The notes under the pieces are model-generated. The model did not search any database. It was not told the DNA's origin and saw only the letters and a list, made by a program, of their open reading frames with translations. A stretch of DNA of 28,767 nucleotides. Source: a virus. Taxonomy: Duplodnaviria > Heunggongvirae > Uroviricota > Caudoviricetes. This document shows positions 5,180-20,209 of the stretch, in pieces (position 1 is the first letter of the stretch; every line of letters starts with the position of its first letter). The translations under genes and the position numbers were made by a program. The stretch lies in IMG/VR virus record IMGVR_UViG_2778261058_000020; one strand, 5' to 3'.

Positions 5180-5492
5180 TGCTGATTTAATGGCTGCAAC
5201 CTTAATTTCCAGTGGCATGCCAGAACAAAAGGTAAATGATTTCCTGGATAATGTCGTATACCAGCACTATGAGCAGGCCAGAGAAAATTTAATTTCAGAA
5301 AAGCTCACGATGATTGCTGAATCATTAAGTCCTGCATGGATTATCGAAGAGTTGCGGGGAATCATTGCCAGCCAGGATAAAGTGGCGGCAGTTGCCGCCC
5401 TCGATGTGCTACAGCGAATGAGTAAAGAGCTATTCAACACTGAATTAATTTTTAAATCCGGGGGACATAATGAGCCGCACATCCCTAATTAA
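5157..5492 (+). CDS. Hypothetical early protein (111 aa)
   Basis: Track ORF; strong GAGGAGG RBS upstream of ATG 5157; 3' end overlaps the gemA start. Confidence 0.5.
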   Translation: MKIQMITDADLMAATLISSGMPEQKVNDFLDNVVYQHYEQARENLISEKLTMIAESLSPAWIIEELRGIIASQDKVAAVAALDVLQRMSKELFNTELIFKSGGHNEPHIPN

Positions 5493-6021
5493 ATTAATTC
5501 ATGTTGCCCGTCGGGAGTTGCAACTCGACGATGACACTTACCGAGCTTTTCTGGTGCAGTGCACGGGCAAAACCAGTTGCCGCGAGCTGTCTGTTGCACA
5601 ACTGGAACAAGTGCTCGATGCCATGAAAGAGCGCGGTTTTAAAAAGCAGAAAAAACATCCCCGCCGTCGCTTTAAGGGGCATGTCACACCGCGCGAGAAG
5701 ATTTATAAAATCTGGCAGCAGATGTTTCTTGATGGTTTCGTCTCCGATATCAGCGACGCCGCGCTGGACAAATACGTTGAACGTCTGACGGCCAGACGTA
5801 ATGGTGGTCAGGGTGTTTCCACGCTGGCCTGGTGTCATGGGGAATCGTTGCAGGTTGTGCTCGAAACGCTCAAGCAGTGGCATATGCGCTGCATTCGGGA
5901 AGCCTTTGCCCGACATGGCGTGCCTTTACCTGTGAGCGAAACCGGGCGGGAACTGCGCGGATATGATGCACTGACCAGTGCGTATGCCCGCGCCAGAAAC
6001 AGCGGGAGAATAGTTCTATGA
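5470..6021 (+). CDS. gemA: GemA-like protein (Mu gp16 family), 183 aa
   Basis: Track ORF; size and position directly upstream of mor with ATGA start/stop overlap; sequence resembles Mu GemA as recalled. Confidence 0.7.
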   Translation: MSRTSLIKLIHVARRELQLDDDTYRAFLVQCTGKTSCRELSVAQLEQVLDAMKERGFKKQKKHPRRRFKGHVTPREKIYKIWQQMFLDGFVSDISDAALDKYVERLTARRNGGQGVSTLAWCHGESLQVVLETLKQWHMRCIREAFARHGVPLPVSETGRELRGYDALTSAYARARNSGRIVL

Positions 6022-6419
6022 AAGAGCAGGATTTATTTGGTGATTATCAGGACGACAGTATCCTTGAATATTTTGATGATGTTCAGGAAAAATCGGGATT
6101 TCCATCTTTACTGGCTGAGCTGAATGCTCTGTTGCGACAAGAGCTGATAAGGCTTGGAGTTAACCCTGCCCACTCCCTTGAGCTGGTAGTGGCGATTTGC
6201 AATCATATCGGTGGGATTCAGGTATATGTTCCGAAAGGGAAAATACTGGAAAATCTTATCAGAGACATGCGCATCTGGCGTGATTTTGATGGGAAAAACG
6301 TAGCGGAGCTGGTGCAGCGTTACAAAGTGACATACAAAACGGTATATCAGGCCATCAAAAGAATGCGCCGACTGGAGCGTGGAAAGTATCAAATGCAACT
6401 ATTTAAGGACGAACAATGA
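6018..6419 (+). CDS. mor: Mor/C-family transcription activator (middle operon regulator-like), 133 aa
   Basis: Track ORF; C-terminal GGIQVYVPKG linker followed by an HTH (VAELVQRYKVTYKTVYQAIKRMRR) typical of the Mor/C family; follows gemA as in Mu. Confidence 0.8.
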   Translation: MKEQDLFGDYQDDSILEYFDDVQEKSGFPSLLAELNALLRQELIRLGVNPAHSLELVVAICNHIGGIQVYVPKGKILENLIRDMRIWRDFDGKNVAELVQRYKVTYKTVYQAIKRMRRLERGKYQMQLFKDEQ

Positions 6420-6913
6420 AATATCTTCCCCTTATTCTTTTACTAACTGTTACTACTGTACAAGCGGCGGATACATTCCAGCAAAAAGTCAAAGATGTTT
6501 TTCAGAAAAAAACATCCGTTGACTATACCGACTGGTACGGTAAAGGTGACGCTGCCATTGCTGAGTTTAAAGGATTTAACTTAGGTGTATATCAGGATTT
6601 AAAGACGTCTGTGCGAGATAACGAAATCAACATAAAAATGCAGTATGTTACAGGACCGGTTCGCCCCGATAGCGACGAGTTCGCTCAAATGACGTCTGCT
6701 TTATGTGAAACTGTTTTTGAGCCTTTTGTTGTCCCTGATTATGTTCGCCCGACATCATGGGACGATGATACCCCAGCCCCGCTGAATTTCATGCAAGTTA
6801 AAAATTTAAAGCAAGCTGAAGATGATCCTGTCGAAAAAACAGTAAATGGCTGGAAGATAAAAATTGATCGTTCAGTAATGAAGACTACGTGTTCTGCCCG
6901 TAAAGTTAACTGA
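6416..6913 (+). CDS. Secreted (periplasmic) protein of unknown function with cleavable signal peptide, 165 aa
   Basis: Track ORF; N-terminus MKYLPLILLLTVTTVQA followed by ADT (AXA-type cleavage site); ATGA overlap with the mor stop; coding sequence looks AT-richer than its neighbours. Confidence 0.6.
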   Translation: MKYLPLILLLTVTTVQAADTFQQKVKDVFQKKTSVDYTDWYGKGDAAIAEFKGFNLGVYQDLKTSVRDNEINIKMQYVTGPVRPDSDEFAQMTSALCETVFEPFVVPDYVRPTSWDDDTPAPLNFMQVKNLKQAEDDPVEKTVNGWKIKIDRSVMKTTCSARKVN

Positions 6914-6935
6914 ACCAATAACCTTATATTCAATG

Positions 6936-6959
6936 AAGCCGGTAAATCCGGCTTTTTTT
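6936..6959 (+). terminator. Rho-independent terminator-like hairpin (AAGCCGG-TAAAT-CCGGCTT plus T7)
   Basis: Perfect 7-bp stem, 5-nt loop, run of seven T; sits 23 nt after the stop codon of ORF 6416..6913. Confidence 0.7.
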
Positions 6960-7014
6960 ATGCCTCCGGCACCATGAAGCAGACCACGTTTAAATCTGCT
7001 TCACAGGTGCTTTT

Positions 7015-7611
7015 ATGGAAAATCTAAAATTCTCCCCGGCCTTTGAGCATGCGCTGAATTTTATTCTGCGTCCTGATATCGAAGGCGGCTATGTCAATGA
7101 CCCCACTGACAGTGGCGGCGAAACCAAATACGGCATTTCTGACCGCCGCGACGGTGTGATTGACGGCAAAACCGATGTCAACGGCGACGGCAAACCGGAT
7201 ACCCGCATTAAGGATTTAACCCGCGAACAGGTTGCGCAGATTTACTGGCGCGATTACTGGCTACCTGCCGGATGTGACCAGTGGCCTGATGGCGTGGCGA
7301 TGTTTGTGTTCGATGCGGCGGTTCAGCATGGCGTTAAAAAAGCCATCAGGATTTTGCAGGAAGCCGCTGATGTGGATGCTGACGGCATCATCGGCCCACG
7401 TACCCGTAAGGCCGTGAGCCTGTCCACACCGGATTGGTTGCTGGCCCGCTGCATTGTCCGTCGTTCCTGCTTTTATGCCGACATCATCAAGTCAAAACCC
7501 GCCCAGGGCAAATACCTGAACGGCTGGTTTAACCGCATGGAAAAACTGACCGACGCCTGTCTGGAAATCATCGATACCCCTTTGGGCATCATGTCCGCCA
7601 CGCGGGGGTGA
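7015..7611 (+). CDS. lys: Endolysin, GH108-type N-terminal domain plus PG_binding_3-like C-terminal domain (198 aa), no N-terminal TM/SAR segment
   Basis: Track ORF; motifs EGGYVNDPTDSGGETKYGIS and RDYWLPAGCDQWPDGVAMFVFDAAVQHG ... DGIIGPRTRKAV typical of GH108/PG-binding-3 lysins; position equals Mu lys. Confidence 0.75.
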   Translation: MENLKFSPAFEHALNFILRPDIEGGYVNDPTDSGGETKYGISDRRDGVIDGKTDVNGDGKPDTRIKDLTREQVAQIYWRDYWLPAGCDQWPDGVAMFVFDAAVQHGVKKAIRILQEAADVDADGIIGPRTRKAVSLSTPDWLLARCIVRRSCFYADIIKSKPAQGKYLNGWFNRMEKLTDACLEIIDTPLGIMSATRG

Positions 7612-7612
7612 T

Positions 7613-7840
7613 ATGGGCAAAGGCTGGGATGCCTCACTGAAAGCCGGGCGGCGTGACCGCCTGCGTCAGGAGGTTTTACACCGCATGGCCGGAGGTCCGC
7701 CCCCGAAACCGCTGGACTATACCGGCCATGACGGCACACACGCCAGCTACTACATGCGTGGCTGGAACTCCGTGGATACACGGGACATTTTCTGGCAGTG
7801 CCAGAAGTACAAGGAAAAACTCAATGCACAGAATGAATAG
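7613..7840 (+). CDS. Hypothetical small protein (75 aa), start 2 nt after endolysin stop
   Basis: Track ORF; tight coupling to lys; no recognisable domain. Confidence 0.4.
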   Translation: MGKGWDASLKAGRRDRLRQEVLHRMAGGPPPKPLDYTGHDGTHASYYMRGWNSVDTRDIFWQCQKYKEKLNAQNE

Positions 7841-8234
7841 TCTTTTTGTTCGCGTTATTTACTCCCGCTTTATGTTGTGCCAGTGGTCGTTTCTGGGACT
7901 GTCGGCAGTACTTTTTCTGGCGAGCTGTTTTGCCGGATGGCGGGCGTTTGCGGTCATGGTGCTGGCATACGGCGCGACACTCTGCCTGATTCACAGTTTC
8001 CAGCTGGGCAACGTACCTTATCGCCTGCAGCCCAAAAGGCGTTTCCGGGCCGCCTCCCTTCGAATTGTCGTGTGGTCATGGGTGGTCTGGGCCGTTGGTT
8101 TTTTCATGCTGACATTCGGCATTCTTTATCTGAAGGAGCCTTATCAGCTGGCGTTCTGGCTGGGCGGTATTTTTTGCGCGGCACTTTATAAACATCAGCG
8201 CCGTTTTCATAAGGGGGATTCATGGATCCGTTAA
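7824..8234 (+). CDS. Integral membrane protein, about 4 predicted TM helices (136 aa); lysis-cassette candidate
   Basis: AAGGA RBS upstream of ATG 7824 (track ORF 7653..8234 is the same frame extended); several long hydrophobic stretches. Confidence 0.5.
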   Translation: MHRMNSLFVRVIYSRFMLCQWSFLGLSAVLFLASCFAGWRAFAVMVLAYGATLCLIHSFQLGNVPYRLQPKRRFRAASLRIVVWSWVVWAVGFFMLTFGILYLKEPYQLAFWLGGIFCAALYKHQRRFHKGDSWIR

Positions 8235-8830
8235 CCCTTTCAGGCATCGCCTCTGTTCTGCTGAAAGCCGGGCCGGGGCTGATTCGTTCCGTCGGGCGCT
8301 GGTTTGGTGGCAGTACATCTGCCGCCGCTGACTCGGTGGCCGGTATGGTGGAAAGCGTCCGGGAAAGCCTTCCCGTTGCTGAACAGCAACGCATTCTGGA
8401 ACAAAAACTGGTGATGCTGTCACCGGAGCAACTGGTGCAACTGGAAACCCTGAAAATTCAGCTGCAACAGCTGGAGGTGGAACGGCAGAAGCTGGTGCTG
8501 GCTGACCAGCAGGCCGCACACCACGAACAGCAGGAAACCATCCGCAATGGTGACAACGCCACGGACAGCTATGTGCGCCAGACACGCCCGCTGCTGGCCC
8601 GCCTTTCCTGTTACAGCAGTCTGGCCTATGTGCTGTTGCTCTCCTGCGGCCAGATTGCCGGAGCCATTGCCGGTGCCAGAGGTATCACGCTGCATATGCC
8701 ATCACCGGACTGGGATATCACGCTGATGTTGCTTACCCCGGCGCTGGGCTATCTCGGTGTAAGAACCCTTGACGGCTTTGCCCGTTACAGCAAATCAAGC
8801 CGTCACAAAATGTCTGCGGGGCCGAAATGA
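8222..8830 (+). CDS. Membrane/coiled-coil protein, possible holin-like protein (202 aa)
   Basis: Track ORF; Gln/Leu-rich central coiled-coil region and C-terminal hydrophobic segments; adjacent to endolysin. Confidence 0.45.
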   Translation: MDPLTLSGIASVLLKAGPGLIRSVGRWFGGSTSAAADSVAGMVESVRESLPVAEQQRILEQKLVMLSPEQLVQLETLKIQLQQLEVERQKLVLADQQAAHHEQQETIRNGDNATDSYVRQTRPLLARLSCYSSLAYVLLLSCGQIAGAIAGARGITLHMPSPDWDITLMLLTPALGYLGVRTLDGFARYSKSSRHKMSAGPK

Positions 8831-9054
8831 CCGACGAAATCGATCGCATCAGTGAAGTGGTTCTGAACGAGCGTCAGAGCGTCGTTAAAGCCTGGCAGAC
8901 ACGGACAAAAGAAGCGCCCCACAGCCGGGGCTTCTGCAATGACTGCGGGAACGTTATTCCGGCACAGCGCCTTGCGGCGCTGCCGGATGTGGTGACCTGT
9001 ATTGACTGTCAGCAGATGCGGGAACGCAGGAGGAAAACGTGTCCTGGGAAATGA
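8827..9054 (+). CDS. TraR/DksA-family C4-type zinc-finger protein (75 aa)
   Basis: Track ORF; CNDCGNVIPAQRLAALPDVVTCIDCQ gives C-x2-C-x17-C-x2-C spacing typical of phage TraR-like proteins. Confidence 0.55.
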   Translation: MTDEIDRISEVVLNERQSVVKAWQTRTKEAPHSRGFCNDCGNVIPAQRLAALPDVVTCIDCQQMRERRRKTCPGK

Positions 9055-9344
9055 TCAGAGCCAACTGGCCCATTCTGTGGGCATTGCTGATGACAGGAAT
9101 AAACCTGCTTCAGTTGATTCTGGCAAAGACCTACGTCAAACGCGAAGAGTTTGATTTGCTGCGTTCCCGCGTGTCGGTGATGGAAAGCCAGGTACATCAG
9201 CTACCTGATCGTGATGAGTTCCACCGCCTGCAACTGGATATCAGCAACCTGCGGGGAGAAATCAAAGAGCTGGGGCCATCCATCCGCCAGGTATCCCGCA
9301 TCAGCGATTTGTTATTAGAGAACGAGTTAAAGGAAAAAAATTAA
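9039..9344 (+). CDS. Small membrane-anchored coiled-coil protein (101 aa, GTG start); possible lysis or morphogenesis accessory
   Basis: Track ORF; AGGAGG RBS upstream; N-terminal hydrophobic helix WPILWALLMTGINLLQLIL then charged helical region. Confidence 0.5.
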   Translation: MSWEMIRANWPILWALLMTGINLLQLILAKTYVKREEFDLLRSRVSVMESQVHQLPDRDEFHRLQLDISNLRGEIKELGPSIRQVSRISDLLLENELKEKN

Positions 9345-9637
9345 TGGCGATGAAAGAGATCCTCACTGAAGACCGTCGTCTGGTGTTGCTGCGTTCCCTG
9401 CTGGATTGTGGCGACAGCGCGAATGAATCCGTGTTGCAGACCTGCCTTCAGGCCTACGGTCATAAGGTATCCCGTGATGTGGTGCGCACCCAGCTTGCAT
9501 GGCTGCGCGAGCAGGGGCTGGTTCGTCTGTCTGATGTGGGCGGCTGTTACGTGGCTGAAATCACCGGCAGCGGTGAGGATGTGGCAAACGGCCTGTCCAG
9601 CGTTCCGGGCGTTAAAAAACCCCGTGCGAGGGACTGA
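9344..9637 (+). CDS. Hypothetical protein with winged-helix-like region (97 aa)
   Basis: Track ORF; start overlaps the previous stop; segment VSRDVVRTQLAWLREQGLVRL resembles a recognition helix plus wing. Confidence 0.5.
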   Translation: MAMKEILTEDRRLVLLRSLLDCGDSANESVLQTCLQAYGHKVSRDVVRTQLAWLREQGLVRLSDVGGCYVAEITGSGEDVANGLSSVPGVKKPRARD

Positions 9638-9639
9638 GC

Positions 9640-9939
9640 ATGGACCGAAAACTGAAGCCGTTAAGTCGCGGAGAACGGGCCGTCGTGCGGCAGCTGGCGT
9701 ACTGTCTTGTGCTCGCGGATATTGAGAAAAACGCCATCGCCCGTGCATATGAACAACAGACCGGAAAGCCCTGGAACCCGGATGCACCGGATACCCCCAT
9801 GAAACGTGCCCTGCGTTCATCACCGGCATGTGCGCGGCTGTGGAAGCTGCTGGGTAAGGATATCCGCTCCGTTCGCGAAGAAATATACGCCGGTCTGAAA
9901 ACACCGGGAACTGAAGACGGGGGCCGTCGTGAACCGTAA
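9640..9939 (+). CDS. Hypothetical protein (99 aa)
   Basis: Track ORF; starts 3 nt after previous stop. Confidence 0.5.
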   Translation: MDRKLKPLSRGERAVVRQLAYCLVLADIEKNAIARAYEQQTGKPWNPDAPDTPMKRALRSSPACARLWKLLGKDIRSVREEIYAGLKTPGTEDGGRREP

Positions 9940-10076
9940 AAAGAATCCGATAAGTAAAGCGTCCCGTGATGAACTCCGCCGTCTGGCGCACAACCTGACA
10001 TGGCGGGAAATCCAGAACGGCGCACTGAAATCTGCATACGAAAGTTTACAGCGTAGTGAGCAACAGGAGCGCACAC

Positions 10077-10658
10077 ATGGAAAATGAACAACGCCCCACC
10101 CGTGGCCGTCTTTCCAAAGTGGATTTACTCCCGGACAGCATCCGGGAGCAGTTGCATCAGATGCTGCGGGAAAAGCGGCACACGCAGGAAGAAATCCGCG
10201 AAGCCATCAATGCCCTGATTGACGAACATAACCTGCCGGAAGAGATGCAGTTAAGCCGGACGGGCTTAAACCGCTACGCCATCCGCATGGAAAAAGTCGG
10301 GGCAAAAATCCGTGCCTCCCGCGAAATGGCCGAAGTCTGGGCGGCAAAGCTGGGTTCCGCGCCAACATCAGACGTCGGCAAGCTGCTGATGGAGTTTGTA
10401 AAAACGCTGGCCTTTGAAACGTCCATGTCGATGGCAGAAGACGACAAACCTGTTGCACCGAAGGCGCTGGGCCAACTGGCGCTGGTTGCCCAGCGTCTGG
10501 AAGTGGCAGCCATGACCAGCCATAAACGCGAGAAAGCGATCCGCGATGCGTTTGCGCAGGAGATGGCAGAGAAAACCGAAGAGCTGGTCAGAACGGGCGG
10601 TCTGTCGGGCGGTGCGGCTGACACCATCAAACGTGAAATTCTGGGGATTAGCGCATGA
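10077..10658 (+). CDS. Mu gp27-like protein (DUF3486 family), putative small terminase / pac-recognition subunit
   Basis: AGGAG RBS 8 nt upstream of ATG 10077 (track ORF starts at GTG 10056); lies immediately upstream of and overlaps the large terminase gene. Confidence 0.6.
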   Translation: MENEQRPTRGRLSKVDLLPDSIREQLHQMLREKRHTQEEIREAINALIDEHNLPEEMQLSRTGLNRYAIRMEKVGAKIRASREMAEVWAAKLGSAPTSDVGKLLMEFVKTLAFETSMSMAEDDKPVAPKALGQLALVAQRLEVAAMTSHKREKAIRDAFAQEMAEKTEELVRTGGLSGGAADTIKREILGISA

Positions 10659-18734: not shown

Positions 18735-20209
18735 TGTCGCTGGGTTCAATTCCTGATGATATCCGCGTCCCGCTTGTCTGGATCGATATCGACAATTCAC
18801 AGGCGCTGGATGGTGCATCCGCGCAAAGCCGAAAAATTCTGGTCATGGGCCATGCGGTATCGTCCGGCAGCGCAGACGCCCTGTCACTGACCCGCATCAC
18901 CAGTGACAGCCAGGCAGACCAGCTTTATGGCAAAGGGTCGATGCTGGCTGAAATGCTCAAAATGCTGCGCCGTGCCAACACGTACACGGAAACCTGGGCA
19001 ATGCCGGTTGCCGCGCCTGAAGGCGCTGCCGCAAAAGCCACGCTGACCGTGCTGGGTACAGCGACTGAAGCCGGAACGGTGGCACTGCTGATTAACGGTG
19101 TGTCCGTTCAGGTGAGCGTGAGCGCCGGGGCTACGAAGGAAAACATTGCAAAAGCCATTGCTGATGCGGTGACGAAAAAGCCTGCCACGCAGGTGGCCGC
19201 TGCGGTGAAGGATGATGCCACGGATACCGTGGAGCTGACCGTGAACTGGCACGGCGTCACCGGCAACGGTGCCGACGTTCGCCTGAACTACTACACCGGT
19301 GAAGCCTTCCCGGCAGGTGTGAAGGTGACCGCTACTGCGTTTACCGGCGGCACCGGGACACCGGAAATGGCGGATGCCGTTGCGGCCATCGGCCCGGAGT
19401 GGTTTACCGATATCATCGCCCCGTTCACCGACACGAAAAGCCTGAACACCCTGCGTGATGAACTGCTGAACCGCTGGGGGCCGCTCAAAATGATGGAGGC
19501 GCAGCTGTGGACGGCGTTTCGTGGCACGCACGGGGAAACCGGTACGTTTGGTGAAACCCGCAATGACTGGCTGATTAGCTGTATCGGCACCAACCTGTCA
19601 CCGCATCCGGCGTGGATGTGGGCCGCGTCATACGGCGCAACGGCAGCGTATCACCTTGCCATTGACCCGGCGCGTCCGCTTCAGACGCTGGTCCTGACCG
19701 GCATTCTACCGCCTGCGCGTAATGTTCGCTGGGATATGCCGGAACGTAACCTGCTGCTGCATGACGGCATTGCCACGCACATGGTGGACGCCGGGGATAA
19801 CGTCTGCATCGAGCGTGAAATCACCATGTACCGGGTTAACCAGTACGGTGATGCGGATGTGTCGTACCTGGATGTGCAGTCCCCCGCCACGCTGGGCCGT
19901 ATCCGTTACATCATCAAAAACCGTTTCACGAACCGTTATCCGCGCCACAAGCTGGCAGATGATGACGTGCTGGACTCACTGGATGCGGGGCAGCCGGTGA
20001 TGACGCCGAAGCTGTGCACCGCAGAGCTGCTGGATATCTGCCAGACCGAACTTATTCCTGCGGGCCTTGTGGAGAACTTCAGCGATTACAAGGACACGCT
20101 TCAGGTGACACGCGACAGCAGCGATAAAAACCGCCTGAACTTTATCTGCCACCCGAATCTGGTGAACCAGCTGCGTGTGCTGGCAGGCCTGATTCAGTTC
20201 AAGCTTTAA
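18734..20209 (+). CDS. L: Contractile tail sheath protein L (Mu gp39-like), 491 aa
   Basis: Track ORF; size and position before tail tube gene. Confidence 0.85.
   Translation: MSLGSIPDDIRVPLVWIDIDNSQALDGASAQSRKILVMGHAVSSGSADALSLTRITSDSQADQLYGKGSMLAEMLKMLRRANTYTETWAMPVAAPEGAAAKATLTVLGTATEAGTVALLINGVSVQVSVSAGATKENIAKAIADAVTKKPATQVAAAVKDDATDTVELTVNWHGVTGNGADVRLNYYTGEAFPAGVKVTATAFTGGTGTPEMADAVAAIGPEWFTDIIAPFTDTKSLNTLRDELLNRWGPLKMMEAQLWTAFRGTHGETGTFGETRNDWLISCIGTNLSPHPAWMWAASYGATAAYHLAIDPARPLQTLVLTGILPPARNVRWDMPERNLLLHDGIATHMVDAGDNVCIEREITMYRVNQYGDADVSYLDVQSPATLGRIRYIIKNRFTNRYPRHKLADDDVLDSLDAGQPVMTPKLCTAELLDICQTELIPAGLVENFSDYKDTLQVTRDSSDKNRLNFICHPNLVNQLRVLAGLIQFKL

Follow-up and report, generated by a model that had tools for sequence, protein, structure and literature searches.

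A probable holin of the TeaA/GTA_holin_3TM family beside a predicted cytoplasmic GH108 endolysin in the lysis cassette of a Mu-like prophage

The IMG/VR virus record IMGVR_UViG_2778261058_000020 (Caudoviricetes) comprises 28,767 nucleotides, hereafter the window, and carries a Mu-like transposable prophage in which the transposase and B ATPase genes are followed by the GemA gene, the gene of a Mor-family activator and the lysis region, and then by gp27-like, large terminase, portal, head and contractile-tail genes. The lysis region (positions 7,015 to 9,344; Table 1) comprises, in its open reading frames (ORFs), what is very probably the start of a late operon of overlapping genes, and from the endolysin gene onward the gene boundaries overlap, the gap between the endolysin and p75 genes being a single base. 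It encodes, in this order, an endolysin, p75, p136, p202, a TraR/DksA-type zinc-finger protein and a DUF2730 protein. An earlier note on this DNA, made from the letters alone, had named the endolysin and three downstream ORFs; all of them exist where it had placed them and RefSeq/PGAP calls identical ORFs in near-identical Escherichia coli prophages, mostly labelled "hypothetical protein", while its list of downstream genes had left out those of p75 and of the TraR protein. Our reading, to which we assign a probability of roughly 0.6, is that this cassette would work as a holin-endolysin system composed of p202 as the holin and a cytoplasmic endolysin of glycoside hydrolase family 108 (GH108).

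The 2.8-kb region is matched in 54 of 5,426 complete E. coli genomes (~1%), with 95-98% identity in 43 records, and E. coli SA53-3 contains a complete 35-kb element, from repressor to Com/Mom, inserted between ynfC and ynfD. Compared with two other E. coli copies, the ratio of nonsynonymous to synonymous substitution rates (dN/dS) is 0.05-0.28 for every cassette gene but p136, and these low values, together with the Pfam and PHROG family matches, show that the cassette ORFs are real genes and not chance ORFs. Upstream of the endolysin gene, an intrinsic terminator (GAAGCCGGTAAATCCGGCTTT then TTTTATGCCT) appears to close the Mor-containing operon and thus to mark an operon boundary. Since this strong terminator separates the region from the Mor operon, the endolysin gene is very probably the first gene of the late transcript. 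The late promoter should then lie in the ~50 bp between the terminator and the endolysin start, a stretch whose + strand showed no sigma-70-like promoter.

Table 1. Positions of the lysis genes and of neighbouring features in the window.
Feature	Positions	Strand	Basis
GemA	5470-6021		
Mor-family activator	6018-6419		
165-aa protein with signal peptide	6416-6913		
Intrinsic terminator	6935-6965	+	8-bp GC-rich stem and T-run
Endolysin, 198 aa, GH108 muramidase domain and PG_binding_3	7015-7611	+	PF05838, PF09374, phrog_315
p75, 75-aa soluble three-helix protein	7613-7840	+	phrog_2121; AlphaFold2
p136, inner-membrane protein, four predicted transmembrane segments	7824-8234	+	hydropathy; phrog_12596
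p202, 202 aa, probable GTA_holin_3TM/TeaA-family holin	8222-8830	+	profiles, fold, synteny
TraR/DksA-type C4 zinc-finger protein	8827-9054	+	PF01258 (7e-11); TIGR02419 (61.6 bits, cutoff 59.7)
DUF2730 protein, homologue of the Mu gp25 "releasin"	9039-9344	+	PF10805
33-aa alternative-frame ORF	9624-9725		
99-aa basic protein	9640-9939		
52-aa basic protein	9929-10087		

The endolysin shows the Glyco_hydro_108 domain (PF05838, 87.2 bits against a gathering cutoff of 21.2) and the PG_binding_3 domain (PF09374, 60.3 bits against 24.6) in Pfam, and matches the endolysin family phrog_315 (1e-54) in PHROG; the NCBIfam model "holin-associated N-acetylmuramidase" is hit below its threshold (78 bits, cutoff 240). 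Its dN/dS relative to the other E. coli copies is 0.13. The GH108 family is characterised by an N-terminal motif, E-G-G-Y / D-x-G-G-x-T-x-x-G-I, which is present at residues 22-42 of this protein (IEGGYVNDPTDSGGETKYGIS) and also in the Klebsiella, Vibrio, LP.1, VP58.5 and PBR31 enzymes. Residues 1-21 are charged (E2, K5, E11, R19, D21) and the GH108 domain starts with EGGY at residue 22, which leaves no room for a signal-anchor-release (SAR) or transmembrane (TM) segment; no SAR, TM or signal segment was detected, and no 19-residue window reaches a Kyte-Doolittle value of 1.2. The description of this enzyme in the earlier note, as a soluble GH108 and peptidoglycan-binding protein without TM or SAR segment, was therefore right, and so was its expectation that a holin is needed, since the endolysin is predicted to be cytoplasmic and should require a membrane lesion to get at the cell wall. 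At residues ~46-61, the enterobacterial and Yersinia GH108 enzymes present an Asp/Gly-rich insertion of ~13 residues (DGVIDGKTDVNGDGKPD) that resembles a DxDxDG calcium-binding loop and is not found in the Vibrio or Shewanella enzymes.

The candidate for producing this lesion is p202. A first search for its homologues went no further than relatives of 70% identity or more, none bearing a Pfam label, while a library of 1.8 billion representative proteins reached diverse members and gave 134 relatives, 78 of which were aligned over their full length. The one family to recur among them was PF11351 (GTA_holin_3TM), which 34 of these 78 homologues matched at E ≤ 0.01 (best 8e-9). The same alignment was compared using hhalign with TeaA, encoded by ORF137 of the phage ICP1 and annotated as teaA/holin in GenBank records: with TeaA as a single sequence the probability was 80.7%, over the N-terminus only, rising to 97.6% (E 3.3e-12, 120 columns) with an alignment of six TeaA members. 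Both TeaA and p202 carry a W-x-G-G motif, as WFGG, in the N-terminal hydrophobic helix, and the p202 branch has in addition its own invariant R-P motif ahead of the second TM segment (TM2).

The structural predictions agree with this relationship. The AlphaFold2 model of p202 is all-helical (pLDDT 91.3, pTM 0.71) with a 44-residue helix at residues 68-111, and hydropathy and model together place hydrophobic segments at ~124-152 and 166-180 and a weak one at 3-28; the 202-aa length and the C-terminal hydrophobic segments given for this ORF in the earlier note were thus both recovered. The resulting layout (a weakly hydrophobic helix at the N-terminus, then a large helical region of acidic character, a pair of TM segments towards the C-terminus and a basic C-tail) resembles that of ICP1 TeaA, with its N-terminal hydrophobic helix, helical middle, two C-terminal TM segments and basic tail. 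In a Foldseek search of the model against BFVD, which holds predicted viral structures, the top hit was "Holin of 3TMs, for gene-transfer release" (E 1.6e-7), and the PDB returned no match at E ≤ 0.001. Profile and fold comparison thus place p202 in the TeaA/GTA_holin_3TM family, and the statement of the earlier note that a holin role was not assignable from sequence no longer holds. We regard p202 as a probable holin. TeaA collapses the proton motive force (PMF) like the T4 holin T, can be triggered by 2,4-dinitrophenol (DNP) and lyses Vibrio cholerae alone (eLife 2020, PMC7182436), and in the gene transfer agent RcGTA the endolysin-holin locus rcc00555-rcc00556 is needed for lysis and release. 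RefSeq names the p202 orthologue of E. coli TD225-C4 (3798-4406) "twin-arginine translocase TatA/TatE family subunit", a label that looks spurious; an NCBIfam scan of the window copy returned no family at E ≤ 0.01.

The charge distribution of the p202 family is informative about its topology. There are ~4.1 K+R just before TM2 and ~4.7 K+R in the C-tail, and the TM2-TM3 loop of ~10 residues holds 0.24 K+R with a net charge of -1.1. Following the positive-inside rule, the acidic helical region and the C-tail are predicted to be cytoplasmic, leaving almost nothing in the periplasm. Such a topology fits a protein forming lesions in the inner membrane and argues against a spanin-like bridge to the outer membrane.

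Synteny points in the same direction. p202 lies two genes downstream of the endolysin in the window, and its homologue (or that of TeaA) stands directly after the endolysin in the metagenomic relative L019, in the Janthinobacterium phage Donnerlittchen (annotated LD-endopeptidase) and in the Vibrio phages LP.1 (GH108, verified with Pfam), 219E41.2 (annotated amidase), VP58.5 (annotated "endolysin") and 1.270.B (annotated DD-peptidase); in Vibrio vB-Vv-ZX4290 it is found downstream of a DUF5675 endolysin. The family is hence preceded by four enzyme types (GH108, DUF5675, LD/DD-peptidase and amidase) on unrelated phage backbones and, since it follows endolysins whatever their catalytic type, it most plausibly acts at the membrane. 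A comparable pairing exists in RcGTA, where rcc00555/rcc00556, founding members of PF11351, associate an endolysin with a GTA_holin_3TM protein as here (rcc00556 was compared by family only), although that locus is host-domesticated in Rhodobacterales and far from the structural genes, whereas the pair in the window belongs to a phage late operon.

The same gene order as in the window is observed in the Mu-like phages of Vibrio from the Nahant collection (e.g. 1.028.O), martha 12B12, ZX4290, Shewanella MuM16-2 and Klebsiella Kp4866-3: Mor, a secreted or membrane protein (absent in ZX4290), endolysin, p75-like, p202-like, TraR, DUF2730, a winged helix-turn-helix (wHTH) protein and the terminase genes. 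Some relatives contain a DUF5675-type endolysin in place of the GH108 enzyme. Gene for gene, the identity to the window ranges from 31 to 60% in Vibrio 1.028.O (endolysin 41%, p75 31%, p202 40%, TraR 37%, DUF2730 39%, wHTH 60%) and from 47 to 83% in Klebsiella Kp4866-3, apart from the p136 counterpart (30%). The Vibrio and Shewanella versions lack the gene with four TM segments, which only the enterobacterial ones possess, and the p202 homologue is not annotated as a holin in the Vibrio, Shewanella or Klebsiella records. Apart from this homologue, the cassette of the plaque-forming Vibrio Mu-like phages encodes no multi-TM protein, and this is the strongest argument that the conserved way of releasing the endolysin runs through p202 and not p136. 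The pairing of a GH108 endolysin with DUF2730 has already been listed for Vibrio Mu-like myophages that were sequenced from plaques (Chamblee et al., 2022, PMC9239132, Table S1). More distant metagenomic members, with 26-31% identity to p202, display Mor, GH108, an optional p75, p202 and then the downstream genes in a Mu-like arrangement: TraR (in one of two loci), DUF2730 or, in its place, a 100-aa protein without annotation, then a protein of 97-98 aa and gp27. At one metagenomic locus the p202 homologue comes directly after the endolysin.

The comparison with Mu itself shows both conserved and replaced elements. Mu shares the genomic slot, after Mor/C and before gp26-gp27-terminase, as well as the succession of a zinc-finger protein and a DUF2730 protein. 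Nevertheless, Mu encodes a PF00959 SAR lysozyme (gp22) and a two-component spanin (gp23/gp23.1) and no holin (PMC9239132), whereas the element in the window has a predicted cytoplasmic GH108 enzyme, a probable holin and no recognisable spanin. The difference from canonical Mu proposed in the earlier note therefore concerns the endolysin and the spanins, and does not extend to the DUF2730 gene, which is also found in Mu. The TraR zinc-finger gene occupies the position of Mu gp24, is kept there in the relatives and probably does not encode a lysis effector. In ICP1, a small Cys-rich protein (CxxC-type) is encoded right after teaA, parallel to the TraR protein in the window.

The DUF2730 protein, whose gene is the fifth after that of the endolysin, matches PF10805 with 105.6 bits, residues 4-98 covering model positions 1-102 of 102 including the transmembrane domain (TMD), and aligns with the gp25 of a Yersinia Muvirus at 27% identity (BLASTP, E 6e-11). 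Its gene, with a dN/dS of 0.05-0.09, is under the tightest constraint in the cassette. It has one N-terminal TMD (~residues 11-29) followed by a helical region, and basic residues stand after the TMD (K30, K34, R35) while the net charge of the N-terminus is 0, so that the protein is predicted to be N-out/C-in with a cytoplasmic coiled coil, which is opposite to the orientation of an i-spanin. Of the i-spanin-like architecture attributed to it in the earlier note, the N-terminal TM segment and the helical, coiled-coil region remain; the likeness to an i-spanin does not, given the full-length DUF2730 match and the predicted orientation. Indeed, an N-out/C-in topology with a cytoplasmic coiled coil has been reported for all phage DUF2730 proteins (Chamblee et al., PMC9239132). 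The prototype of the family, Mu gp25, is a membrane-tethered cytoplasmic protein, N-out/C-in, that is needed for freeing the SAR endolysin, is distinct from the Mu spanins gp23 and gp23.1 and showed no holin properties, and DUF2730 was found within five genes downstream of the endolysin in 34 of the 34 phages examined, including those with cytoplasmic endolysins (PMC9239132). As defined there, the releasin mechanism targets an SAR domain embedded in the membrane, the basic cytoplasmic residues of the SAR endolysin making it dependent on the releasin (PMC9239132), and thus cannot apply to the DUF2730 protein of the window, whose endolysin has no SAR segment. Family membership is established by Pfam, and does not imply a releasin-type function.

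Small proteins with an N-terminal TMD and a coiled coil also adjoin TeaA-family genes in ICP1 (ORF139, 19753-20097), Vibrio 1.170.O (749-1048) and VP58.5 (ORF55, 662-931). A homology between these neighbours and DUF2730 was considered and rejected (BLASTP E 3.8; hhalign ≤1%).

The two remaining genes of the cassette lie between the endolysin and p202. p75 shows no TM segment or signal peptide, is predicted with a pLDDT of 85.5 and has a dN/dS of 0.08; its model found no neighbour in the PDB at E ≤ 0.001, the best being RNA polymerase omega with a non-significant E of 0.15. Its homologues come after the endolysin in the Klebsiella, Vibrio and Shewanella Mu-like elements, and across relatives it accompanies the GH108 gene and/or the holin gene. 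One PHROG family, 2121, covers p75 with its profile positions 3-75 and p202 with positions 91-273, which hints at fused or co-clustered versions. The plaque-forming Yersinia Muvirus vB_YpM_5 (MT374853, 2974-3757) has a GH108 gene (74% amino acid identity) and a p75 gene (70%) between mor and C, in addition to a full Mu-type cassette with SAR lysozyme, gp23, gp24 and gp25, and without p202 or p136. The presence of GH108 and p75 in the absence of p202 and p136 indicates that these two genes are mobilised together, and the partner of p75 may be the GH108 enzyme and not the holin. Some database variants were observed in the region 7613-8234: P0285 shifts into the alternative frame of the 7653 ORF, and P0264, of 176 aa, bears the p75 family label PF26867 and also shows 60% identity to p136 (81% query coverage), PF26867 being a precomputed label on p75 homologues.

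Three to four segments of p136 are hydrophobic, and its N-terminus, its middle loop and its C-tail are basic, the last of these strongly so (KHQRRFHKGDSWIR). This hydropathy fits a predicted N-in/C-in protein of four TM segments, in line with the multi-TM protein of the earlier note. Its dN/dS of 0.30-0.72 relative to the other E. coli copies derives from 7-10 substitutions, its relatives form 13 protein clusters, all close and the named ones from E. coli, and several database copies are truncated to 94-95 aa. Its counterpart in the Klebsiella phage Kp4866-3 is 30% identical, compared with 67-83% for the flanking lysis genes (TraR 47%), and the gene is not present in the Vibrio, Shewanella MuM16-2 or metagenomic relatives examined. 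Judging from these sequences, p136 is a fast-evolving addition of enterobacteria only. No holin family was matched in Pfam, NCBIfam or PHROGs. In ICP1 the multi-TM antiholin ArrA is encoded directly upstream of teaA, as p136 is upstream of p202; this parallel is positional only, and homology of p136 to ArrA (ORF138) was rejected (BLASTP E = 11). From its position and predicted location, our guess is that p136 could be an antiholin, a holin partner or a holin modulator.

Regarding the outer membrane, lipoboxes were sought in all frames of the window, of the cassettes from four relatives and of three entire sequences (the full E. coli prophage, Vibrio 1.028.O and Xanthomonas PBR31). No ORF of the window, the full prophage or the relatives qualified as a plausible lipoprotein of the o-spanin or u-spanin type, confirming that there is no obvious lipoprotein partner, as the earlier note had already remarked. 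Three lipobox-like matches occur in the window cassette, LASC in the first TM segment (TM1) of p136, LLSC in TM2 of p202 and one in the 33-aa ORF, and neither the Cys of LASC nor that of LLSC is conserved in Klebsiella. As a u-spanin (T1 gp11 type) or lipoprotein, p136 was rejected because its LASC (Cys35) is inside TM1 with another TM segment right after and no periplasmic domain, Klebsiella having LLFC. An internal in-frame GTG start of p202 at 8573, giving a lipoprotein-like LLSC, was discarded as well, most homologues having Glu there and Klebsiella no Cys. The alternative frames within 9039-9640, where the earlier note had proposed to look for an embedded o-spanin, yielded only the 33-aa ORF, rejected with its lipobox Cys four residues from the C-terminus. 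No i-spanin (N-in/C-out, with a periplasmic coiled coil) was identified, the sole protein with a TMD and a coiled coil being the oppositely oriented DUF2730 protein, and nothing convincing resembling a disruptin-like cationic amphipathic peptide was seen among the + strand ORFs of the cassette. Spanins are reportedly missing from about 15% of the phages that infect Gram-negative bacteria (bioRxiv 515445), so the absence of a spanin here is not unusual. The window resembles these spanin-less phages in showing neither an i-spanin/o-spanin pair nor a u-spanin, and no counterpart of the phiKT disruptin gp28 (bioRxiv 515445) stood out in its cassette. Extending the view to the p202/TeaA family, 10 of 11 cassettes with such a gene and all three whole genomes contain no lipobox candidate, in a small and partly non-independent sample. 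The sole ambiguous lipobox-like candidate seen in these cassettes is gp58 of VP58.5 (2058-2351), a 97-aa protein encoded right after the TeaA homologue and starting with MCIRLAAPVAASCLCASVYLCGC.

Taken together, the lysis of a cell carrying this element might proceed as follows. A late transcript would begin after the terminator, and the overlapping genes would be expressed together. The GH108 muramidase would build up, folded, in the cytoplasm while p202 builds up in the inner membrane, and triggering of p202 would collapse the PMF and produce lesions through which the muramidase could reach the peptidoglycan. p136, p75 and the DUF2730 protein would most likely be modulators of holin timing or triggering, probably acting via the cytoplasmic helical region of p202; with the coiled coil of DUF2730 predicted to be cytoplasmic and p75 devoid of TM segment and signal peptide, both could contact that region. 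As no spanin is encoded, rupture of the outer membrane would be passive or depend on a factor not yet recognised.

Several observations weigh against this interpretation and must be considered. The score of p202 itself against PF11351 is 19.6 bits, under the gathering cutoff of 24.8, and TeaA has no match in the Pfam copy scanned. p202 and TeaA align from the N-terminal region through the middle one into the beginning of TM2, short of the complete TM hairpin. The first hydrophobic helix of the p202 family carries ~1.9 K/R on average, making the third membrane segment weak where the two C-terminal ones are clear, and this N-terminal helix may be peripheral rather than transmembrane. In Donnerlittchen a LydA-type holin (PF16083, 6e-13), and in Xanthomonas PBR31 a gene annotated "holin", precedes the endolysin, and the p202/TeaA-like gene stands in the usual spanin slot, so the family may not always act as the primary holin. 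Holin activity is known for TeaA and, genetically, for rcc00556, and is deduced for p202 by relationship, and the roles proposed for p136, p75 and DUF2730 as modulators follow from position and predicted location only.

Among the alternatives, it is unlikely that p136 is the real holin, with p202 as an accessory antiholin or regulator. Its small size, several TMDs and very basic hydrophilic C-tail are classic holin traits, it is located within the cassette directly upstream of p202, and its rapid divergence between E. coli and Klebsiella, much faster than that of its neighbours, is often seen in holins; however, Vibrio, Shewanella MuM16-2 and metagenomic Mu-like elements that share the GH108, p202 and DUF2730 genes do without it, so that the conserved mechanism does not need p136, and its few and close relatives, its weak or uncertain constraint and the lack of any holin family match also speak against this role. 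We consider it quite unlikely that the p202/TeaA family is not a holin at all and performs or replaces the outer-membrane step from the spanin slot, endolysin release being left to something else. The constant position of the family after the endolysin, the usual place of spanins, would suit this idea, as would the separate small holins ahead of the endolysin in Donnerlittchen and PBR31 (whose TeaA-like gene is annotated "putative spanin"), the lack of lipobox ORFs in nearly all cassettes and in the whole genomes, and the description of RcGTA release with the endolysin-holin locus only. Nevertheless, p202 is predicted to expose in the periplasm only a ~10-residue loop and, at the very most, a few residues of its N-terminus, with which it cannot reach the outer membrane, the PMF is collapsed by TeaA as by the T4 holin T, and the Vibrio Mu-like phages offer no other candidate for the release of a cytoplasmic endolysin, their DUF2730 protein having one TMD and Mu gp25 being without holin properties.

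The same lack of an SAR domain on which a releasin could act makes it decidedly unlikely that DUF2730 is the key release factor, acting in the manner of a releasin on a non-SAR endolysin, with p202 in a secondary role, even if Mu gp25 is required for endolysin release, all of the phages surveyed have DUF2730 near the endolysin, cytoplasmic endolysins included, and the gene is the most constrained of the cassette; DUF2730 may moreover belong to a conserved gp24-gp25-gp26-gp27 block next to the terminase genes, and not to lysis. Finally, the cassette could be the decaying remnant of a cryptic prophage that no longer supports lysis, as E. coli is known to harbour it only in the form of a prophage, truncations or frameshifts affect some of the p75 and p136 variants in databases, and MuM16-2 is judged an inactive prophage. 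This is very improbable given that the SA53-3 prophage is complete, with every module from repressor to Mom, that the substitutions among the near-identical E. coli records are mostly synonymous and that homologous cassettes occur in phages sequenced from plaques.

A broader idea, rather doubtful at present, is that the TeaA/GTA_holin_3TM cassettes constitute a distinct and systematically spanin-less lysis route of Gram-negative hosts, in which cytoplasmic partners would control the helical domain of the holin. These partners may be DUF2730 and the 75-aa protein in the Mu-like elements and the analogous TMD and coiled-coil proteins in ICP1, 1.170.O and VP58.5. The support is thin, consisting of the near-general lack of lipobox candidates (10/11 cassettes, 3/3 genomes) and of recurrent neighbours without detectable homology to DUF2730. 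If this were true, holin control would be the ancestral task of DUF2730 and the SAR "releasin" of Mu a later derivative. It should be noted that ICP1 is a large virulent phage with lysis inhibition, of which there is no sign for the element in the window.

Other genes flank the cassette. The 165-aa protein encoded between Mor and the terminator presents a cleavable-type Sec signal peptide without lipobox, and its gene, in a low-GC (42%) stretch, overlaps the Mor stop with its start and precedes the terminator. Its counterpart in the corresponding slot of the Vibrio phage 1.028.O shares 25% identity with it (E 1.6e-8), and this slot holds a signal-peptide protein in Shewanella MuM16-2 and a 110-aa membrane protein in Klebsiella Kp4866-3. 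On the other side, between the wHTH and the gp27-like genes, two small basic proteins encoded side by side, one of 99 and one of 52 aa, are paralogues along an N-terminal stretch of 38 residues (39% identity, E 2e-7 to 4e-7).

The family of every component of this cassette is already known, as is the pairing of GH108 and DUF2730 in Mu-like phages (Chamblee et al., 2022). What appears to be new is that p202 finds a place in the TeaA/GTA holin family, that the Mu-like elements encoding it, unlike Mu, probably encode a holin, and that E. coli is the host, which makes experiments straightforward. Mu is holin-less, and other transposable phages may also have explored this alternative lysis strategy (Chamblee et al., 2022, PMC9239132). 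Our results add a clear and apparently unannotated enterobacterial prophage case of the TeaA/GTA holin family, which RefSeq lists as "hypothetical" or, in some genomes, as a "TatA/TatE family subunit", and another spanin-less cassette, a useful but fairly ordinary variant that does not overturn current models. The role of DUF2730 beside cytoplasmic endolysins was left open by Chamblee et al. (2022, PMC9239132), and a DUF2730 protein native to E. coli, together with a cytoplasmic GH108 enzyme and a probable TeaA-type holin, would make this question testable with standard E. coli genetics instead of in marine Vibrio.

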